Below, piece after piece: positions 6,595-29,925 of a DNA stretch of 64,000 nucleotides. Positions within the stretch are counted from its first letter, which is position 1. Every line of letters begins with the position of its first letter. The stretch is from an uncultured delta proteobacterium (GTDB taxonomy: Bacteria > Desulfobacterota > Desulfobacteria > Desulfobacterales > Desulfosalsimonadaceae): contig CAWGYD010000006.1 in NCBI GenBank assembly GCA_963826785.1, positions 192,001 to 256,000 on the forward strand, read 5' to 3'. Below the pieces are notes generated by a model. That model was not told where the DNA came from. It made no database searches and was given only the letters and a program-made list of their open reading frames with translations. Both the position numbers and the translations under genes were made by a program.

Positions 6595-7562
6595 TTCGAA
6601 AATGTGGTTTTCCTATGCCATTCCAGATTTTCCTGCGCCGGCCAGAAGGATTGATCCGCCGGCCGGAAGATGGTTCTGTCGGACAGGGTCAGAATATGTC
6701 CAGGGTAGTTCTTTTCAGTTTTCACCAGCTTTGAAACCATCACCTCATAATTGTTGCCGACGCTCATCAGGCCTTCATCGAAGGACCAGTGGCATAGCCT
6801 GCACAGGGACATGCCATTTGTCGGCAGGTCATCATAGCTTTCACTCCACGGCTTTACATGTGCCGCCTCAACAACCGTATGGCCTTCGGGCGTGAGCATG
6901 CGGATGCCGCAGAGGGCGCACCGGTGTTCATAGAGCATGACCACCGCTTTGCGGAACCCCTGATCCCTTATTTTTCTGTCCCGCGTGTCCTCTTTCCGCT
7001 CGGCTTCAAACGGGATGACTTTCTCTGAAACCTTCAGCAGATTCTGACTGTATTCATATGCTTTGATATTTACGTACCCGCATTCTGCCACCGCCGGCCG
7101 AATCTGCTCGGCAAAATGATGGTTGATGACGGCAGCCCTCAGCTGCTCCCGTGTTTCCATATGGCTAAACAGCAGGAATAGCTTTTCATCGAGCCGCGCA
7201 CCTGCGGATACTTCCCTGAGTTTTTTCATGGAGGTGATGGACTGGATGTCTATGCGGCCCTTGAAGTCCGGATTCGAAACCAGGGTAAGAATGCCGTCAT
7301 TTTGGAGGCGTGGAAACGGGTAGGCCATATTGCCGGTCGTGCCCAGCGGCATGATGGCCTGCCAGTAGAGATTGAATGTCTCTACGAGTTCGAGCGAGGG
7401 CTCAATAAAATTTTCTGTAATCAGGCCTTCCGCAAAATGGTCCATGACGGAAAGCAGCAGGAATGGCTTGTGCGGCGCCTGATAGCACGTCAGCGCGGAC
7501 CATTTGCTGCGGTTCTTGTCCGTCCGCAGACGGGTCAATTTTCGGGCGAATTCTTCGAGCAT
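6591..7562 (-). CDS. SBD-HNH endonuclease, probable phosphorothioate-DNA-dependent restriction enzyme
   Basis: N-terminal APHKPFLLL and YPFPRLQNDG (sulfur-binding-domain-like); C-terminal RDQGFRKAV...CALCG...AAHVKPW...CRLCHWSFDEG. Confidence 0.75.
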   Translation of the reverse strand: MLEEFARKLTRLRTDKNRSKWSALTCYQAPHKPFLLLSVMDHFAEGLITENFIEPSLELVETFNLYWQAIMPLGTTGNMAYPFPRLQNDGILTLVSNPDFKGRIDIQSITSMKKLREVSAGARLDEKLFLLFSHMETREQLRAAVINHHFAEQIRPAVAECGYVNIKAYEYSQNLLKVSEKVIPFEAERKEDTRDRKIRDQGFRKAVVMLYEHRCALCGIRMLTPEGHTVVEAAHVKPWSESYDDLPTNGMSLCRLCHWSFDEGLMSVGNNYEVMVSKLVKTEKNYPGHILTLSDRTIFRPADQSFWPAQENLEWHRKTTFSK

Positions 7563-22377: not shown

Positions 22378-23609
22378 GGGACGCCCTTTACATTTTTATA
22401 TTTTTCAAAATCTCCTGCAGCACCAAACCCTCTTTTTGAGCCAATCGAATTCCCCTTTTAACCGCAACGCTTACAGTGGGCACCGAGATTTTCAAACTGC
22501 CTGCCACATCCGTCATGGACATACCCAGCCCGCGCACCGCCCAATGACAGACAAGGGCACGCGCCTTCGTGATGACGCGCACTTTGGACGGCCCGACAAT
22601 CTCTTCCGGATCGATCCCGAGAAAACGGGATACGGCTGAAATAACATGTTCCAGTGTCACGCCCCTGGCGACGGGCTCGTATCGCGTTTGCATGCGCTCA
22701 CGGGCATTGGCCAAGACAGATTCGACAAAGTCCCCGTCCCCGAGAATGCGCTCATCGCTTTTTTGGAAAGCTCCGGTCCTGCGCAGTGATTGAACTGATG
22801 TCCATCCGCCGGCGCTTCGAATCAGTCCGCCGCCAACAAGCTCCGGCTGTCGCCCCTTTTCGATACCCTTTATAAGATATTCCCGATAGCTTTGCCGCGC
22901 CGCATTTTTCTTCCTGCCGAAAAATGCCAGCACGTCCTCGATTGATTGCCAGTCGTTGCGCCGTTTTGCCATCAGGTAACTATGCCCTGCAAATTGATAA
23001 TGGTCCAATTCGCCAATATCATAAACCAATCCGGCCCTGAGCGGGTTAAGATGGATGTAGCGAACCAGTTCTTTCAAATATACGTCTTCCTGGCACAGAA
23101 TCGATTTGTACCTGTTCTGAAAAACGTGCCCACATCGCTCGTGGCGCCGGTTATAACTTACTGCATAGCCGGTCAGAAGTCGGCGCATGACAGTGGAAAT
23201 CGGTTCATTTCCGGTTTTCAGCAGCAGGTGGAAGTGGTTGGGGATCAATGCCCACGAGAAGCATTTCGTTTGGGTTTCAATAATGATCTGGCCGAGACGC
23301 TTCAAAAAATTTTCACAATCCTGATCATCACGGAATATCCGGCCTTGCTCGATCCCCCTGGCAATGATGTGATGCACCGCCCCCGGCGCGTCTATGCGTG
23401 CTTGTCTTGGCATACCAAATCCATAGCACATGATCAGATTAATATAAAGTATAAAGGGCGTCCCACAATTGAGGGACGCCCTTTATACTTTATATTTAGC
23501 TGTTGCGGTTGAGTCCGGTTGTTTCTCGATCCAGGGGTTGGTGTTTGTGCAATACTTCATCACACTTTACCAGAGCGATATCTGAAATGTAAAATGTAAA
23601 GGGCGTCCC
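22378..23609. mobile_element. Inverted-repeat-bounded element carrying a RAYT-like Y1 transposase plus a tandem mini-unit
   Basis: Four TAAAGGGCGTCCC copies (22378-22390 reverse, 23452-23464 forward, 23473-23485 reverse, 23597-23609 forward); perfect 22-bp outer IR at 22375-22396 and 23591-23612. Confidence 0.75.
22388..23413 (-). CDS. HUH Y1 transposase (IS200/RAYT superfamily) with C-terminal DnaA-C-like HTH
   Basis: MPRQARID..GAVHHIIARG, LIPNHFHLL (HUH), GHVFQNRYKS, YIHLNPLRAG; C-terminal KARALVCHWAVRGLGMSMTDVA. Confidence 0.9.
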   Translation of the reverse strand: MPRQARIDAPGAVHHIIARGIEQGRIFRDDQDCENFLKRLGQIIIETQTKCFSWALIPNHFHLLLKTGNEPISTVMRRLLTGYAVSYNRRHERCGHVFQNRYKSILCQEDVYLKELVRYIHLNPLRAGLVYDIGELDHYQFAGHSYLMAKRRNDWQSIEDVLAFFGRKKNAARQSYREYLIKGIEKGRQPELVGGGLIRSAGGWTSVQSLRRTGAFQKSDERILGDGDFVESVLANARERMQTRYEPVARGVTLEHVISAVSRFLGIDPEEIVGPSKVRVITKARALVCHWAVRGLGMSMTDVAGSLKISVPTVSVAVKRGIRLAQKEGLVLQEILKNIKM

Positions 23610-24424: not shown

Positions 24425-25282
24425 TTAGAAGTCGGCCCAGTCAGTGACGGGCCGGAGCGGCACCGGCGGGTAGATCTGGCCATGGCTGGGGGGCATGGAA
24501 TTATAAACCCAATCGATATCAATTGTTCCCAAATTCAACAACCGTATACGATTGAATCCGTTGAATTTGCCCCGGGTCAAAACGTCCTCCATTTTCATGG
24601 TCAGGCCGAATACCGAAACGGTTTGTCCGGCGGGGATGGCTTTCAGTTCGGATCCGTATGCATAGGGGGTGAAGGCCAGCCGGCGGCTGTCCGCGGCCTG
24701 GCACTGGAGCATGGGAACGATCTCCGGAAACCCGTCCGCTTTCACCCAGGCGATGAATTTGAGCGAATCGATGGCGTTGAACAGGTTTTCGGAAAACGGG
24801 GTCAGAATGCGGCGGTCCTTCCCGGTGGCCGCTGCACTCCTGGCAATCCGGGTCGTCAGCGAGGATGCGATGATCGACGCCAGCGGAAGCCCGTCCGGGC
24901 CGCGCAGATCCACCAGGTCGAGGTAATGGACGGTGTTGATCCCGAAATAGGAATTGTACCGGAACATGGGCAGGTTGTTGTAGGCCTCATATTCCGGCCC
25001 CTCGGTTTTGAGATGCGTCCAGGACGCATGCCCCCGCCACATTTTCCGGTTCATGGTCAGCACCAGAAAGGCAACTCTGGGGTTCTTTTGAATAAAGGAC
25101 TTGCTCTGCCCCTTGCAGAATTCGCCCAGGGTGATTCCGCTTTTGCCGGCGGCCCGCAGGGAGGTGATCAGGGTGATGTGGGGCAGGCCCGCGGGGTTGA
25201 TCGATGCCACCAGCCCGATCTTTTCATTGGGCGAAAACGCTTCGATGGTCTGTTCATCCATTTCATTAAGATCGTAGCTCAC
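24425..25282 (-). CDS. Tandem pyridoxamine-5'-phosphate-oxidase-like (FMN split-barrel) protein
   Basis: Two similar halves (GLVASINPAGLPHIT; KFIAWVKADGFPEIV); GAGGAG RBS ahead of GTG at 25282; overlaps the activase stop. Confidence 0.7.
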   Translation of the reverse strand: MSYDLNEMDEQTIEAFSPNEKIGLVASINPAGLPHITLITSLRAAGKSGITLGEFCKGQSKSFIQKNPRVAFLVLTMNRKMWRGHASWTHLKTEGPEYEAYNNLPMFRYNSYFGINTVHYLDLVDLRGPDGLPLASIIASSLTTRIARSAAATGKDRRILTPFSENLFNAIDSLKFIAWVKADGFPEIVPMLQCQAADSRRLAFTPYAYGSELKAIPAGQTVSVFGLTMKMEDVLTRGKFNGFNRIRLLNLGTIDIDWVYNSMPPSHGQIYPPVPLRPVTDWADF

Positions 25283-26426
25283 CTTGGGGCTCCTCCTCTG
25301 TGTTTTTCTTTTCCAGCCGGGCCGACCCCGACCAGGATACGATATCCGGATCGACGCCGGACGCCTTTGCGGTCCGGGCAAAATCGTTCATTTCCGCTTC
25401 GCTGAGCAGCGGGGTATCATGAAATTCCCATTTTCTGTCCAGGCGCAGGTACTTGTCTCTGCACAAATTGTTGAACGCGCACAGTTCCCAGCGGCTCACC
25501 ACGTCTTTTATGTTTTCGGCGATGAACCGGCCGATGGCCGCGATGTTGTCATGGTGTGCCGTGGCCCCCGGGATGACGGGCGTGCGGATCCACAGTTCCC
25601 GGGGATACAGGTGCGAACGGATGTAGTGGGCCGTATGCAGCAGATTTTCATGTATGTTTTGATTGCTGTGTCCGGTAAAGCGTCGATGGGCTTCCTCATC
25701 CATGATCTTGAGATCGAACAGCACCAGTGCCGCATGGGGAAGCAGGTGATCCAGCGCCTCGCGGCTGCACTGGCCGCAGGTGTCCATGGCGGTATGGAGC
25801 CCCGCTTCCCGCAGGGCCTGTAAAAACGCCCCCGCAAACCGGTGCTGCAGGGTCGGCTCCCCGCCGGATATGGTGATGCCGCCTTCGGATGCCTCAAAAT
25901 ACGCCCGGTCCTTGACCACCTCGGCCACCAGTTCGTCCACACGCCATTTTTTGCCCAGAAGTTCCAGGGCCGTGCCGGGGCATTCGGCCGCACACGCGCC
26001 GCACCCCTCGCAACGGGTGCGGTCGATGGCCATCCCCTGCTCCGAAAGTGTCAAGGCGCCGTTTTCGCATGTCTCAAGGCAGGTGCGACAGCCGATGCAC
26101 CGGTTGCCGATCCAGCAAAGCTGGGGTGAAATGGAGATGCTTTCCGGGTTGTGGCACCAGGCGCACGAAAGCGTGCATCCTTTGAAAAACACCGTGGTCC
26201 GGATCCCCGGCCCATCCTCGGTGGACATGCGCACGATCTCCAGGATGGTGCCGGTCAGATTTGAATTTTTTTCCTTTTTTCCGTTTGTCTGTAAAGACGG
26301 TTTATCCTTGCTCCCCCCTTTCGCAAAGGGGGGCAGGGGGGGATTTTTTGCAGGATCTGCTCCAAATCCCCCTAAATCCCCCTTTTCAAAGGGGGACTTT
26401 TCAGTTGCAGGCGCTTGTGGATTCAT
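25266..26426 (-). CDS. Glycyl-radical enzyme activating enzyme (radical SAM with ferredoxin-like insertion)
   Basis: DGPGIRTTVFFKGCTLSCAWCHNPE; CIGCRTCLETC and CEGCGACAAEC; GGITISGGEP. Confidence 0.95.
   Translation of the reverse strand: MNPQAPATEKSPFEKGDLGGFGADPAKNPPLPPFAKGGSKDKPSLQTNGKKEKNSNLTGTILEIVRMSTEDGPGIRTTVFFKGCTLSCAWCHNPESISISPQLCWIGNRCIGCRTCLETCENGALTLSEQGMAIDRTRCEGCGACAAECPGTALELLGKKWRVDELVAEVVKDRAYFEASEGGITISGGEPTLQHRFAGAFLQALREAGLHTAMDTCGQCSREALDHLLPHAALVLFDLKIMDEEAHRRFTGHSNQNIHENLLHTAHYIRSHLYPRELWIRTPVIPGATAHHDNIAAIGRFIAENIKDVVSRWELCAFNNLCRDKYLRLDRKWEFHDTPLLSEAEMNDFARTAKASGVDPDIVSWSGSARLEKKNTEEEPQGELRS
26311..26399. repeat. REP-like palindromic doublet inside the activase 5' coding region
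   Basis: tcccccctttcgcaaaggggggcagggggggatt ... aatccccctaaatcccccttttcaaagggggac. Confidence 0.75.
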
Positions 26427-26459
26427 CCGCTTTTCCTGGCAATGCATTTTGAAGTTCTC

Positions 26460-28973
26460 TCAATACCGGCTGTGGCTCAGCCTGGCGATCACCTCGTTCT
26501 GGAGTTCGCGGCCCACGGCGGTGAAATAGGCATTGTAGCCGGTGATCCGCACCAGCAGGTGCCGGTAGTTCTGGGGGTGCGCCTGGGCGTCTTTGAGCAT
26601 CTCCGGGTCAAGCATGTTGACCTGGAGGCAGGTGCCGCCGTTTCGGTCGTATCCCTTCAGGAAGGCCTTGAATTTTTCCCGGTGGGCCGGGTCCGCGATG
26701 ATGGACGGGTTGAAGGTCATGGTATGACTGGCGCCGTTGGGGAGGCAGTTGAGATACCCGCCCCAGTCCCCCTGCCCGTCTTTGGCCCGGCCGCCCAGGG
26801 CCTTGCCCACGGAGTTGGCATTGGCGGTGGGGCCGTTGATGTCCGCGCCATTGGACGGGCAGATGGCGTTGGACAGGAACTCGCCCTTTCTGCGGCCGTC
26901 GGCGCTGGCGGCCATGACAAACCCGTCGCCCGCCCAGTAATTCCAGCTCAGCATCCCGGGGCGAAACTGCCGGCCCGTGCTTTTCGTCCTGTGCTTCCAG
27001 GCCTCGGCCGTCCAGAGGTCCATGACTTTTTGCGCCATTTCGTCTGCCGCATCATCGTCCCGGCCGTACTTGGGCGCCCGGTTTCTGGCCAGGGCGCGCA
27101 GCTTGTCGTGGCCTTCCCAGTTGTCGCGCAGGGCGGCGATGAGTTCGGACATGGTGCATTTTTTTTCGTCAAACACCAGGTACTTGACCGCCAGCAGAGA
27201 ATCGACCGTGGTGGCAAAGGTCACCGCCTCCAGGGTGACAAATGAAATCTCGGCGCCGCCCCGGGTGACGTCGATCCCTTTTTCCGCGCACCCCTTGACC
27301 AGGCAGGAGAGATAGGGGGTGGGCAGATACGCCGCCCGAACCGATTCGGAGCGCTCATAGAGGTCCACGCATTTTTTGACGATATACTGCGTCTGGCGGG
27401 CATAGGCTTCCCAGAACCGGGCCCAGTCCGCAAAACGGGCGGCATCTCCGGTGTAGGGGCCGTCCTGTCGGATCTTTTCGACTTTGCCGGTGAGAATGTC
27501 TTTGAAGGGGATGATGTCCGTGCCGCCGGTAAGGGCGAGTTCAACGGCCTTGAGCAGGTTCAGGTTGCAGTCCACCGTGCCGGAGCGGTCGTTTCCCGCC
27601 ATGGTATTCTCCAGGCATCCCACCGGCGCGTAGTCGTGAACGTTGTCCCGGTTGATCAGATGGCCAATCCCTGCTTCTTTGGCCTCCCGGAGCATCCCGG
27701 CCATGGAGCGCTCATCGAAATTGATCAGAAAGGGCGCCCCCTGGCTGGATGAAATCATGTCCACCATTTTTTCCAGGAGGGGCTCGGGCGAATTTTGGTG
27801 CAGGCGGACATTGGGCTTGGGCTCCAGGATGGGGCTCATCTCGTCGATGACTTCAAGGATGACATAGGTGAGGTCGTTGGTGGTGTCCAAGCCGTCTTTT
27901 CCGATGCCGGAGAGGGTGAGGAGCTGCCCGAACCCGGCGGTGATCCCCTGGTTGCCGTTTCGGATCATGGCGTCATAAGCGGTGTTGGCATGCACCCAGA
28001 AGCATTTGAGGATCTCCTTGCCGAACTCCCGGTCCATGCCGGCATCGATGGAGGCCTTCCAGAAGGGGAGCAGGTACTGGTCGATCCGGCCGAAGGAAAC
28101 CCCCGGGCCGGGATAATTTTCGTCGCTCATGACCAGCATGTGGGTCAGCCAAAGGGACTGGACGGCCTCCCAGAAGGTTTTTGGCGGCTCCCAGGGCACC
28201 CGGTCCAGATTTTTGACCATCTGCATCAGTTCGGCCTTGCGCTCCGGGCCGGTTTCCCTTACCGCCAGTCCCCGGCAGACCGTGGCGTATTTGGCCGCAA
28301 GTTCCCTGGGCAGGGTTGCCGATGTCATCATGGCCTTCAGCTGGGCACCCTTTTCGCCTTTCTGCTCTTCCGGGGAAAGGGCCTGGAAGAGATGCTCCAG
28401 TTCCTCGTGAACGCCTTTCCAGCCCATGGCCAGCACCTTCGGGTAATCCGGGATCAAGTGCCCGGAAGTGGCGCCGGCATTGCCGTATCCGTGGTCGTGA
28501 AACCATTTCACCGCGGCCCGGGCGCCCTTTTTGCCCGTGGTCAGCGCATCGAATGCCGCCTGCTCTTCCCGGTCCAGGCACATGGAAGCGATAATGTTGA
28601 ACCGGCCGCCGGCAATGAGGTCTCCGGGCAGCATCTCTGCGGGCAGGCAATTGACCATGACTTCCTTGATGAACACGGCCCGGCGCTCCACGATGGATTT
28701 TTCCCAGAAGCCGGCGGGAAGATCCACCATCCGGGCGGACTGCCTGAAGGAACTGCGCAGGGTCTGCATCAGCATGTAGGTTTCCGGGACGATGTAGTAG
28801 GTCATCTCGTTGAACTGGACATCCCAGGGGGTGCCCGTGGTCCAGGCGGTAAACTCGTTGTTCCAGGCCCGGTCGGTTCCCTTGAAGTAATAATCCCGCA
28901 GTTTCGTGATGCGATCGGAAAGACCTGCGGGTTCCTTGATGCCGGGCTGCAGCCGGGCGGCGGATGTGGCCAT
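26460..28973 (-). CDS. Glycyl radical enzyme (PFL superfamily), substrate unknown
   Basis: Cys loop APVGCLEN (single Cys), Gly loop LLVRITGYNAYF, SFGRIDQYL. Confidence 0.93.
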   Translation of the reverse strand: MATSAARLQPGIKEPAGLSDRITKLRDYYFKGTDRAWNNEFTAWTTGTPWDVQFNEMTYYIVPETYMLMQTLRSSFRQSARMVDLPAGFWEKSIVERRAVFIKEVMVNCLPAEMLPGDLIAGGRFNIIASMCLDREEQAAFDALTTGKKGARAAVKWFHDHGYGNAGATSGHLIPDYPKVLAMGWKGVHEELEHLFQALSPEEQKGEKGAQLKAMMTSATLPRELAAKYATVCRGLAVRETGPERKAELMQMVKNLDRVPWEPPKTFWEAVQSLWLTHMLVMSDENYPGPGVSFGRIDQYLLPFWKASIDAGMDREFGKEILKCFWVHANTAYDAMIRNGNQGITAGFGQLLTLSGIGKDGLDTTNDLTYVILEVIDEMSPILEPKPNVRLHQNSPEPLLEKMVDMISSSQGAPFLINFDERSMAGMLREAKEAGIGHLINRDNVHDYAPVGCLENTMAGNDRSGTVDCNLNLLKAVELALTGGTDIIPFKDILTGKVEKIRQDGPYTGDAARFADWARFWEAYARQTQYIVKKCVDLYERSESVRAAYLPTPYLSCLVKGCAEKGIDVTRGGAEISFVTLEAVTFATTVDSLLAVKYLVFDEKKCTMSELIAALRDNWEGHDKLRALARNRAPKYGRDDDAADEMAQKVMDLWTAEAWKHRTKSTGRQFRPGMLSWNYWAGDGFVMAASADGRRKGEFLSNAICPSNGADINGPTANANSVGKALGGRAKDGQGDWGGYLNCLPNGASHTMTFNPSIIADPAHREKFKAFLKGYDRNGGTCLQVNMLDPEMLKDAQAHPQNYRHLLVRITGYNAYFTAVGRELQNEVIARLSHSRY

Positions 28974-28976
28974 TTT

Positions 28977-29708
28977 TCAGTCCTCCTGTCTGGATACGAT
29001 GTTGCGCAGCCGGTCTTCGCCATGCTTGAGCATGCGCCACATGACATCTGCGGCGGCGGGCTCGTCTTGATCGGCGATGGCGGAAACCAGCTCGCTGTGG
29101 AATGCAAAGACTTCCTCAACCACGGATGTATCGGTGAAAAACTGCCGGGAGAGGTTGGTGTAGACCGGCTTGAAGGAATTGATCAAAAGGGGATAAAGAA
29201 GGTTGTCGGTGGCGATGGTCACCGTAAGATGAAATTCGAAATCGAGCTGGGTCACGGCATCGATGTCTGCGGCCGAAGCCGCCTGCTCCCGGCCGGTGAT
29301 GCGGTGAAATTCCAAAATCTGTTCATCGGTGCGGTTTTTCGCGGCCAGGCGGGCGTTTTCCGTCTCCACCAGCAGCCGCATGTTGAGCATCCCCTCCAGC
29401 AGCCGGGGATCGAGCTTGCCGTCCTGGTACGCCAGAAGGGAGGTGAGCAGGGTGATCGATCCCTGCCTGCGGTAGTCGTTGATGATGGTGCCGATGCGGG
29501 GGGTCATGGAAACCAGCCCCTTGGCGGCAAGATCCACCAGTGCCTCGTGTACGACGGGGCGGCTCACCCCCAGATGCCTGGCCAACTCGCGCTCCGGCGG
29601 CAGCTTCTCCCCCACGGCAAGCGCTCCGGAGAGAATCAATTCCTCAAATCGCCTGACACATGCTTCCTTCAAGCTGTCCGATCTGACCGGCCGCAATCGG
29701 TCGAGCAT
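28977..29708 (-). CDS. GntR/FadR-family transcriptional regulator
   Basis: KLPPERELARHLGVSRPVVHEAL wHTH plus FCD domain (DFEFH). Confidence 0.93.
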   Translation of the reverse strand: MLDRLRPVRSDSLKEACVRRFEELILSGALAVGEKLPPERELARHLGVSRPVVHEALVDLAAKGLVSMTPRIGTIINDYRRQGSITLLTSLLAYQDGKLDPRLLEGMLNMRLLVETENARLAAKNRTDEQILEFHRITGREQAASAADIDAVTQLDFEFHLTVTIATDNLLYPLLINSFKPVYTNLSRQFFTDTSVVEEVFAFHSELVSAIADQDEPAAADVMWRMLKHGEDRLRNIVSRQED

Positions 29709-29733
29709 CCGTTCTTCCTCCTTTATCTGGCTG

Positions 29734-29746
29734 GTGGTAAGACCAC
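29734..29746. promoter_or_regulatory. Probable FadR-subfamily operator
   Basis: Palindrome GTGGT-AAG-ACCAC just upstream of the regulator RBS, matching the TGGT-N3-ACCA pattern of FadR/PdhR/LldR. Confidence 0.7.
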
Positions 29747-29925
29747 AAATATCAGATTAATCCTCTTTTTCAACTAAAACCAGCAAGTCGACATAAAAAA
29801 TGTACGGACGCCCTGAATGCGATTGCTTGACGCATCTGCCCGTGATACGTTTTGATGACTTGCAGACTTCTGTCCCACAGGCGGATACCCGTTGAACGGC
29901 AATTTAAACTTGAGGAATCCGATCC

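Follow-up and report, generated by a model that had tools for sequence, protein, structure and literature searches.

A Glycyl Radical Enzyme Operon with a Predicted Tandem Split-Barrel Subunit in an Uncultured Member of the Desulfosalsimonadaceae

The DNA analysed in this study (hereafter referred to as the window) comprises 64,000 nucleotides from an uncultured delta proteobacterium of the family Desulfosalsimonadaceae (assembly GCA_963826785.1, contig CAWGYD010000006.1, positions 192,001 to 256,000). Its minus strand carries a four-gene operon encoding a regulator, a glycyl radical enzyme (GRE), a GRE activase and a tandem split-barrel protein (hereafter referred to as the barrel); this operon is real and self-contained. 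As judged from sequence comparison, the GRE belongs to none of the families tested and represents a long-stemmed clade of its own, whereas the barrel most probably binds the GRE as a subunit, as deduced from a predicted complex. A predicted split-barrel subunit positioned on the substrate channel in a widespread clade would represent a new GRE architecture. The most specific reading proposed here, to which a probability of roughly 0.2 was assigned, is a two-subunit, oxygen-independent ether-lipid lyase with a gated hydrophobic channel, the activase of which also serves activase-less GREs, in fatty-acid-degrading Desulfobacterota, Chloroflexota and Asgard archaea. The features of the locus are as follows:

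29730..29750, no strand: putative operator, 21-bp near-palindrome; family consensus GCTGGTGGTAATACCACCAGC; core TGGTAAGACCA at 29735-29745; 27 nt to the regulator start
28977..29708, minus strand: GntR-family, FadR-subfamily regulator, 243 aa; Pfam GntR, FCD and FadR_C
26460..28973, minus strand: GRE catalytic subunit, 837 aa; PF02901 and PF01228; H172, C453, E455 and G812
25266..26426, minus strand: radical S-adenosylmethionine (SAM) GRE activase with ferredoxin insert, 386 aa; TIGR02494 at 300 bits (cut-off 174)
24425..25282, minus strand: tandem split-barrel partner (PNPOx/FMN-binding-protein fold), 285 aa, GTG start; AF2 model with a predicted local distance difference test (pLDDT) value of 89.2; predicted GRE subunit
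26300..26410, no strand: dispersed palindromic repeat (blastn), in frame within the first ~45 activase codons; outside the conserved system

Classification of the Glycyl Radical Enzyme

The GRE features the hallmarks of its superfamily, namely a Gly loop (RITGY, with G812), a Cys loop (VGCLEN, with C453 and E455), a ten-stranded barrel and a cognate activase with a CX3CX2C motif. In an alignment of 100 rows, R809-I-T-G812-Y, G452-C453 and C453-L-E455 were invariant, confirming both loops and the eliminase-type C-x-E signature reported in the initial annotation. Sequence identity to solved GREs amounts to about 27-31%, the best relatives in the PDB being PFL2, HypD and CutC. All NCBIfam models touched scored below their cut-offs, the best being the PFL2/glycerol dehydratase (GD) subfamily (408 of 678), followed by HpfG (NF048009, 374/1000), HypD (NF043068, 368/1100), the C-S lyase family NF048011 (354/1000), CutC (TIGR04394, 312/1050), IAD (229/1100), BssD (177/496) and HPAD (176/1150). 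The AF2 model (pLDDT 84.7) matched GD, propanediol dehydratase (PD), PFL2, CutC, HypD and PflD with tied Z values of 32-33; GD was the top match, though tied (Z 32.6, root-mean-square deviation (rmsd) 3.1, 705 residues aligned).

In a quick IQ-TREE run with 32 rows, which covered the references named here and left out IslA, HpsG, HplG, the decarboxylases and BSS, the query, eight close homologues and eight sister sequences clustered together (SH-aLRT 100, stem 1.62) and were separated from GD, a PD-type GRM enzyme, CutC, HypD, YbiW, PflD and an HpfG-like protein. The clustering check proposed along with the initial annotation, which had called the GRE unassigned, therefore revealed no grouping with any characterised class tested. 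The YbiW and PflD forks likewise exclude the GRE on this quick tree, and HplG, which lies outside the tree set, was matched with an E value of 1e-62.

Comparison with GD, the reference sequence of which was identical to PDB entry 1R8W bar a few residues, indicated that the catalytic positions are kept and the pocket is altered. The equivalents of GD H164, C433 and E435 are H172, C453 and E455. H281 and S282 are replaced by P290 and G291 within a YPGPG loop (287-291), D447 by V467 with an invariant D468 one residue further on, and Y640, S642 and I644 by L675, W677 and Y679, respectively. On the H172 strand and in the beta-1 loop, positions that are bulky in GD are occupied by small residues. 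At the N-terminus, about 45 residues shared by all references are missing, and a clade-specific insert (38-81) is found instead.

Several assignments were tried and rejected. Membership in the glycerol and propanediol dehydratases is contradicted by the loss of His281, Ser282, Asp447 and Tyr640 and by the placement on the quick tree, where the GRE does not join the GD/PD fork; these four residues, together with S642, we take to be substrate-binding. Pyruvate formate-lyase (PFL) was rejected, as G452-C453 is not a Cys-Cys pair and TIGR01255 reached only 67.5 vs. 994. In the case of CutC, H172 occupies the beta-1 column, where CutC presumably features an Asp in place of the His; moreover, TIGR04394 is below cut-off and the operon contains no bacterial microcompartment (BMC) gene. 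Fumarate-adding synthases and arylacetate decarboxylases were rejected on low equivalog scores and the absence of Fe-S subunit genes, the C-x-E signature being present. With respect to the C-S lyases, Arg678 of the sulfonate anchor presumably registers with L675. Gln193 registers with H172 and Arg189 with A168, and NF048009 and NF048011 are below cut-off; the three residues constitute the anchor of IslA, IseG, HpsG and HpfG according to the accessible sections of a June 2026 review (PMC13450708). HypD, finally, was rejected since its residues Asp278 and Asp339 (PMC7077986, accessible part) align with G289/P290 and F348, with NF043068 below cut-off. The labels 'PFL', 'HypD' and 'Ass/Bss-like' on these genes, the first two of which were seen on clade members, are thus unsupported. 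Single-Cys GREs of Hermodarchaeota at 29-33% identity have been labelled Ass/Bss (PMC8163825, accessible part), and whole GRE clades are without a function according to the accessible sections of the review (PMC13450708).

Organization of the Operon

The regulator and GRE genes are separated by 3 nt, the GRE and activase genes by 33 nt, and the activase and barrel genes overlap by 17 nt; each of the four genes is preceded by a purine-rich ribosome-binding site. The operon encodes no Cys-Cys pair, small Fe-S subunit or microcompartment protein, and small Fe-S subunit genes are absent because the gaps leave no room for them. Gene order, tight or overlapping spacing and these absences, all described in the initial annotation, were thereby verified for the operon. 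A scan for promoters and terminators yielded nothing exceeding shuffled sequences. The flanking genes in the window (a 249-aa gene, an IS200-like transposase, an SDR, lipoproteins and a molybdopterin oxidoreductase) are not conserved beside homologues.

The activase features the CX3CX2C motif at residue 84 and two CX2CX2CX3C ferredoxin motifs at 110 and 139. An alternative in-frame ATG upstream, at 26447, fits the ribosome-binding site more poorly. Homologous activases are alignable only from about residue 50 onward, and the repeat at 26300-26410 yielded 55 blastn matches in its own genome, self and double matches counted. An IS200-like (Y1) transposase gene is located at 22388-23431 in the same window.

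Co-Inheritance of the Enzyme and the Split-Barrel Protein

GTDB yielded 445 matching stretches, the best 80 of which were surveyed to evaluate the conservation of the locus. Of these 80 loci, 71 contained the activase, 67 the barrel and 49 the regulator, and hence the barrel gene is kept beside GRE homologues, the point on which the initial annotation had asked for a check. Among the 13 loci missing a barrel, 11 end within 1.6 kb and two (L063 and L067) are true stand-alone GREs. Seen from the barrel, the GRE was present in 48 of the 49 metagenome loci having 1.8 kb upstream. Thirteen distant homologues of the barrel (20-27% identity) were also retrieved; 12 of them are encoded directly behind a sister GRE with 44-51% identity, and the thirteenth is located at a contig end.

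The barrel family was detected in 34 of 301 genomes of the phylum of the host, and in another phylum, 9 of the 251 genomes contained the GRE. A GRE profile was applied genome-wide to 80 of the 301 sampled genomes, namely all 33 barrel-positive ones besides the host's own genome (G000) and 47 of the 267 negatives. A clade GRE was present in 32 of the 33 barrel-positive genomes and in none of the 47 barrel-negative ones. The exception, G298 (L199, C28), features a deletion scar at 6942-7358 in which GRE residues 3-88 are joined to barrel residues 238-275; here, the cassette was lost as a unit. Furthermore, nine loci (L011, L038, L180, L188, L200, L201, L202, L206 and L207) retain the barrel beside the GRE but have no activase between the two.

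At locus L198, a GRE of a third subclade is followed by a single-lobe barrel of 147 aa with both conserved motifs, the cassette lying within a Liv-type ABC transporter operon. This single-lobe form suggests that the tandem barrel is a fused homodimer that retained one composite surface. Barrel homologues are named from Helarchaeota, and the hosts named among the matches include Smithella, Syntrophaceae and Desulfobacteraceae, which we take to be fatty-acid degraders.

The Split-Barrel Protein and Its Predicted Complex with the Enzyme

The tandem PNPOx-like protein noticed earlier was confirmed with regard to both fold and internal repeat, as based on a predicted model and on hhalign, in which the two halves proved homologous (probability 96.5, E 7e-10); the term flavoprotein used there is supported as far as the fold is concerned. 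Residues 1-126 align with 3IN6, a flavin mononucleotide (FMN)-binding split barrel (Z 15.1, rmsd 3.0, 125 residues aligned), and the nearest structural neighbours are FMN-binding proteins from Syntrophomonas and Desulfovibrio. The Pfam PNPOx_N score remained below cut-off (22.4 vs. 28.1). All top fold matches align to one lobe, with no tandem split barrel among them, and matches in the ESM Atlas represent unnamed or PNPOx-labelled clusters of the barrel's own family. H28 and G51-x-S53-K54 are conserved at 90-98% in the near clade and more weakly in the far clade. The basic K29/R30 of HupZ align with I32/T33 of the barrel, and the C-lobe is devoid of a G-x-S-K-type motif.

Complex prediction was carried out for GRE residues 16-744 and barrel residues 3-272, with an alignment of 100 rows each and the flavin omitted. 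The score was 0.80 (runs of 0.79, 0.82 and 0.80), compared to 0.00 for the best of three controls. Among benchmark pairs, 116 of 157 solved complexes and 2 of 215 mismatched pairs attained such a score; these counts apply only roughly here, since own alignments were supplied for the prediction. At least 89% of the contacts were common to the runs, and the partner pLDDT was at least 83. On the GRE, the predicted interface comprises the clade-specific helix 62-81, the cap-helix region 335-345 and residues 678-685; on the barrel, it comprises 48-51, 98-109, 154-157, 223-227 and 254-272, including the invariant F48, R101, Y102, N103, Y105, P257 and P258. The barrel's interface columns are conserved above its own average (0.71 vs. 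0.60). H28, S53 and K54 are located outside the predicted interface, and a cofactor beneath it may remain. Mutual information over 100 paired rows (effective number 44) was too shallow to be informative, placing none of the top 200 pairs in the interface where 1.5 were expected.

By alignment and secondary structure, GRE segments 335-345 and 678-685 were placed on the cap helix and the post-beta-8 helix, which are described as substrate-channel elements in the accessible sections of the review (PMC13450708). Those sections list small subunits only for HPAD, BSS and MASS, all of them iron proteins with an enigmatic role, and the terms 'flavoprotein', 'FMN' and 'pyridoxamine' are absent from the review. 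Because no split-barrel subunit is listed there, the complex score is unlikely to stem from a memorised similar complex. For laboratory work, the GRE probably needs co-expression with the barrel.

Regulator and Operator

The palindrome GTGGTAAGACCAC at 29734-29746 forms the centre of the 21-bp site. A TGGYnnnRCCA core was detected upstream of 47 of the 49 homologous regulators and before none of the 28 regulator-less GREs with a valid upstream window (three further windows were invalid, the contig start cutting the GRE). With a matrix built from 38 homologous sites, the window operator ranked first genome-wide (4.4 Mb; 21.3 bits), followed by a site with 18.1 bits. The runner-up sites, C1:866703 and C6:86003, are located amid unrelated genes, and in the matrix scan of the host's own genome, no informative gene had another strong operator nearby. 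The regulon thus looks local and autoregulatory, the binding itself being putative. To this extent, the initial annotation of a FadR-regulated operon is supported, with the regulator gene and the conserved site confirmed and their interaction predicted.

The regulator combines a winged helix-turn-helix with FCD/FadR_C and a TGGT-N3-ACCA operator, as is typical for the FadR subfamily; PdhR-type regulators, too, use TGGTnnnACCA cores. It scored 76.7 against PRK04984, the equivalog model for acyl-CoA-sensing FadR of the E. coli type (cut-off 189). Over residues 14/25-212, it is most closely related in the PDB to an Rv0494/FadR construct and to E. coli FadR. The small-carboxylate ligand suggested previously found no support, as E. 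coli FadR, one of these two solved relatives, senses acyl-CoA and the recurrent neighbours hint at glycerol and lipid metabolism.

Gene Neighbourhood and Proposed Reaction

Neighbouring genes were surveyed in 197 loci, some genomes being present twice and relatives not being independent. Glycerol kinase (GlpK) was found within 300 bp in seven loci, representing three separate lineages on a barrel tree of 178 rows, and all three calls tested were above the NCBIfam cut-off. The host's own genome (4.4 Mb) harbours one glpK, corresponding to roughly one in 4000 genes; for 259 long flanks this gives a rough expectation of <0.1, which the three independent adjacencies exceed. A glycerol dehydrogenase (GldA) adjoins the cassette in one locus (L060). 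Aldehyde:ferredoxin oxidoreductase (AOR) was found within 2.6 kb in 10 loci, SCP2 in seven and Fe-alcohol dehydrogenase (Fe-ADH) in six; AOR and SCP2 form a module in two lineages with differing gene order. In the host's own genome, Fe-ADH, an SCP2-like gene and AOR are located in a fatty-acid-type cluster at C10:214528-218296, the same module that follows the cassette elsewhere. As a separate observation, a glyoxalase-family gene stands straight after sister-clade cassettes (L183:7152-7607 and L185:7088-7483), which is compatible with a reactive aldehyde product.

The chemistry is probably that of a C-O eliminase or isomerase, because the C-x-E motif and the leaving-group-protonating His of GD are kept. 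The roles of the GD His, Cys and Glu and the C-x-E feature of eliminases are described in the accessible sections of the review, which also report (section 5.7) that YbiW/PflD cleave a C-O ether bond beside a carbinol, thus providing a precedent among GREs (PMC13450708). According to established GRE chemistry, the activase would install a radical on G812, followed by a thiyl radical on C453. The composite surface of the barrel (98-109, 223-227 and 254-263) would grip GRE residues 62-81, 335-345 and 678-685 and gate the channel like BSS-beta. The thiyl radical would then abstract a hydrogen at the carbinol carbon, with E455 deprotonating its hydroxyl and H172 protonating the adjacent leaving oxygen.

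Whether the substrate has a glycerol backbone is judged an even call. Cleavage of an alkylglycerol ether with the barrel in place as a cap subunit is a tentative and, on balance, doubtful proposal; it is favoured because it best accounts for both a glycerol backbone and a product that is a lipophilic alcohol or aldehyde. More speculatively, hydrogen abstraction at C2 of a 1-O-alkylglycerol would yield a fatty alcohol and hydroxyacetone, Fe-ADH, SCP2 and AOR could pass the alcohol to beta-oxidation, and the FadR-like repressor might sense a fatty acyl signal. If this ether reading is true, the GRE would be a candidate enzyme for anaerobic ether-lipid cleavage, by which ether lipids would be accessible in anoxic sediments. 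The well-known ether-lipid-cleaving enzyme requires oxygen.

A number of observations weigh against the explanation as a whole, from the subunit to the ether substrate. Most loci have unrelated flanks and the telling neighbours are in the minority. GlpK, GldA and a lactate-type MFS transporter are no less compatible with free glycerol than with an ether, and the ADH-SCP2-like-AOR cluster of the host's own genome is without a strong operator in the matrix scan. The bulky W677 in place of GD S642 indicates a pocket that is reshaped and not just enlarged. With regard to the regulator, the FadR match is weak (E 4e-15) and, unlike E. coli FadR, the FCD-type residues D156, H160, H204 and H229 are kept. 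The complex was folded without the C-terminal 93 residues of the GRE and without flavin, and the interface columns of the GRE are not above the GRE average (0.71 vs. 0.75). Scored at the locus and not genome-wide, four GRE loci with ample downstream DNA carry neither activase nor barrel (L063, L067, L215 and L217), the GRE of L215 and L217 standing alone in two of eight Chloroflexota loci, and one barrel locus (L108) carries no GRE. Finally, a sulfatase-family hydrolase is located near the cassette in eight of the 197 loci (L005, L006, L041, L124, L131, L134, L136 and L147), and the sulfatase together with a 186-aa membrane protein recurs in four lineages, which the proposed model does not explain.

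Competing Explanations

The first alternative is a two-subunit, convergent B12-independent dehydratase acting on free glycerol or a small diol, with 3-hydroxypropionaldehyde as the product from glycerol and the aldehyde being disproportionated by Fe-ADH and AOR beside an oxidative GlpK/GldA branch. GlpK in three lineages, GldA in a fourth and glycerol-3-phosphate-dehydrogenase-like genes near L216 point in this direction, as do cassettes of the GlpK clade followed by a lactate-type MFS transporter and a glyoxylate-reductase-like gene, the conserved equivalents of H164/C433/E435 and the position of GD as the (tied) top structural match. However, GD H281, S282, D447, Y640 and S642 have become P/G, G, V, L and W, a true GD works without a subunit, no glycerol facilitator was seen adjoining the cassette, and SCP2 and the FadR-like regulator would be left unexplained. 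This explanation is regarded as rather unlikely.

A long-chain vicinal diol or amino-alcohol dehydratase, or a deaminating eliminase, acting on an alkane-1,2-diol, a hydroxy fatty acid or a sphingoid base and yielding a fatty aldehyde or ketone without any glycerol ether, would account for the FadR-like regulator, the AOR-SCP2-ADH module in two lineages and the acyl-CoA and lipase genes among the flanks. The repeated GlpK/GldA adjacency would remain unexplained, though, and lipid genes are abundant in these genomes, resulting in a high background. Such a substrate would also suit a channel-capping subunit, as the other GREs known to possess one act on hydrophobic substrates (PMC13450708, accessible sections); overall, the proposal is considered improbable. 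A similarly low chance is given to substrates outside those considered here.

The initial annotation had regarded the barrel as an independent flavoenzyme acting on the GRE product, with a small carboxylate as the inducer. H28, G51, S53 and K54 of the split barrel resemble the FMN-phosphate helix of HupZ, three of them (H28, S53 and K54) are outside the predicted interface, and the regulator keeps its FCD residues. On the other hand, K29/R30 of HupZ correspond to I32/T33, the C-lobe is without the motif, and binding between barrel and GRE is strongly predicted; moreover, downstream enzymes are usually exchangeable, yet the barrel family was found almost solely with the clade GRE. A role as a subunit is likelier than one as a downstream enzyme because the barrel stays beside the GRE in loci without the activase and docks on the GRE in the prediction. 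The earlier model is therefore unsupported and appears highly improbable. Still less probable is a barrel serving as flavin electron donor to the activase (replacing flavodoxin) or as radical quencher, with chemistry unrelated to lipids: the barrel gene overlaps the activase stop, its closest folds are the FMN-binding proteins of Syntrophomonas and Desulfovibrio and activases need a flavin reductant (PMC13450708, accessible sections), but the barrel is kept with the GRE in the nine activase-less loci and no comparable partner accompanies the other activases of these genomes within the regions inspected.

Other Glycyl Radical Enzymes in the Host Genomes

Besides the clade GRE, a second enzyme of about 790 aa, termed GRE-B, was observed (e.g., G000 C6:379443-381812 and L008:12657-15035). 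It is closest to PFL2 and GD, keeps GD H164 and D447 and lacks an activase of its own. In 10 loci (nine genomes), GRE-B lies no more than 450 bp from the cassette, and it was found in 10 of the 80 profiled genomes, all of them cassette-positive, and in none of the 47 negatives. It may borrow the cassette activase or share its pathway. In total, the host's own genome encodes five GREs and a fragment vs. two activases, and GRE/activase counts of 3/1 (G300), 2/1 (G109), 2/1 (G283) and 6/2 (G009) were obtained for other genomes. This excess of GREs over activases points to shared activation, a situation regarded as rare among GREs.

Further GREs of the host's own genome include a 1013-aa protein at C1:533917-536958 with an N-terminal extension of ~200 residues, no adjoining activase and a Gly loop (RISGYNAYF) resembling that of the window GRE. 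A GRE without an activase at C4:11378-19817 seems to share an operon with an MmgE/PrpD-like gene, two SDR/epimerase-like genes and a gene pair resembling a two-subunit CoA-transferase (names read from sequence). At C8:203636-207853, an activase and a GRE fragmented by frame changes are 70% like L043:2-2578.

Comparison with Known Systems

The GRE resembles DhaB1 of Clostridium butyricum (1R8W/1R9D) and PD (5I2A, 9RCO) in its ten-stranded barrel, the equivalents of His164/Cys433/Glu435/Gly763 and the ferredoxin-insert activase. It differs from both in its low identity (27-29%), the altered pocket positions, a different N-terminus and the additional barrel partner. With YbiW/PflD, which cleave the ring ether of 1,5-anhydrohexitol-6-phosphate and for which no subunit is described, it shares the C-x-E loop and a His before beta-1; however, identity is 28-29%, the proteins are separate on the tree, and a phosphotransferase system (PTS), aldolase or sugar-phosphate context is absent. 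The best sequence match in the PDB, PFL2 of Archaeoglobus fulgidus (2F3O; E 3e-86, 31% identity), the function of which is debated, lacks the N-terminal remodelling and the YPGPG loop of the window GRE and is closer to the GRE-B family.

HupZ, Swol_0183 and the Desulfovibrio FMN-binding protein share the lobe fold of the barrel (Z 12-15), but are single-lobe homodimers with 14-19% identity, none of which has been reported to act as a subunit of a GRE. That the gene combination is unrecognised, as previously stated, holds insofar as no description of a GRE with a split-barrel gene was found in the literature searched (mostly without subscription papers), apart from lssP. This PNPOx-like gene, the role of which is unassigned, is encoded and expressed in the operon of the fumarate-adding limonenylsuccinate synthase (PMC12583861, accessible part) and does pair such a gene with a GRE. 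LssP, likened to the barrel by description and not by sequence, is the nearest printed precedent for a GRE/PNPOx-like pairing.

Like BSS, MASS and HPAD, the system would comprise a small subunit, which the prediction places on the substrate-channel face as in BSS-beta and MASS-beta. In those enzymes, the small subunits are iron proteins similar to a high-potential iron-sulfur protein (HiPIP) or to rubredoxin, whereas here a 285-aa tandem split barrel is found, and the catalytic subunit is eliminase-like (C-x-E) and only 21-24% identical to theirs in the structure alignment. We infer that the system is built like the multi-subunit BSS and MASS and works like a GRE C-O eliminase or isomerase.

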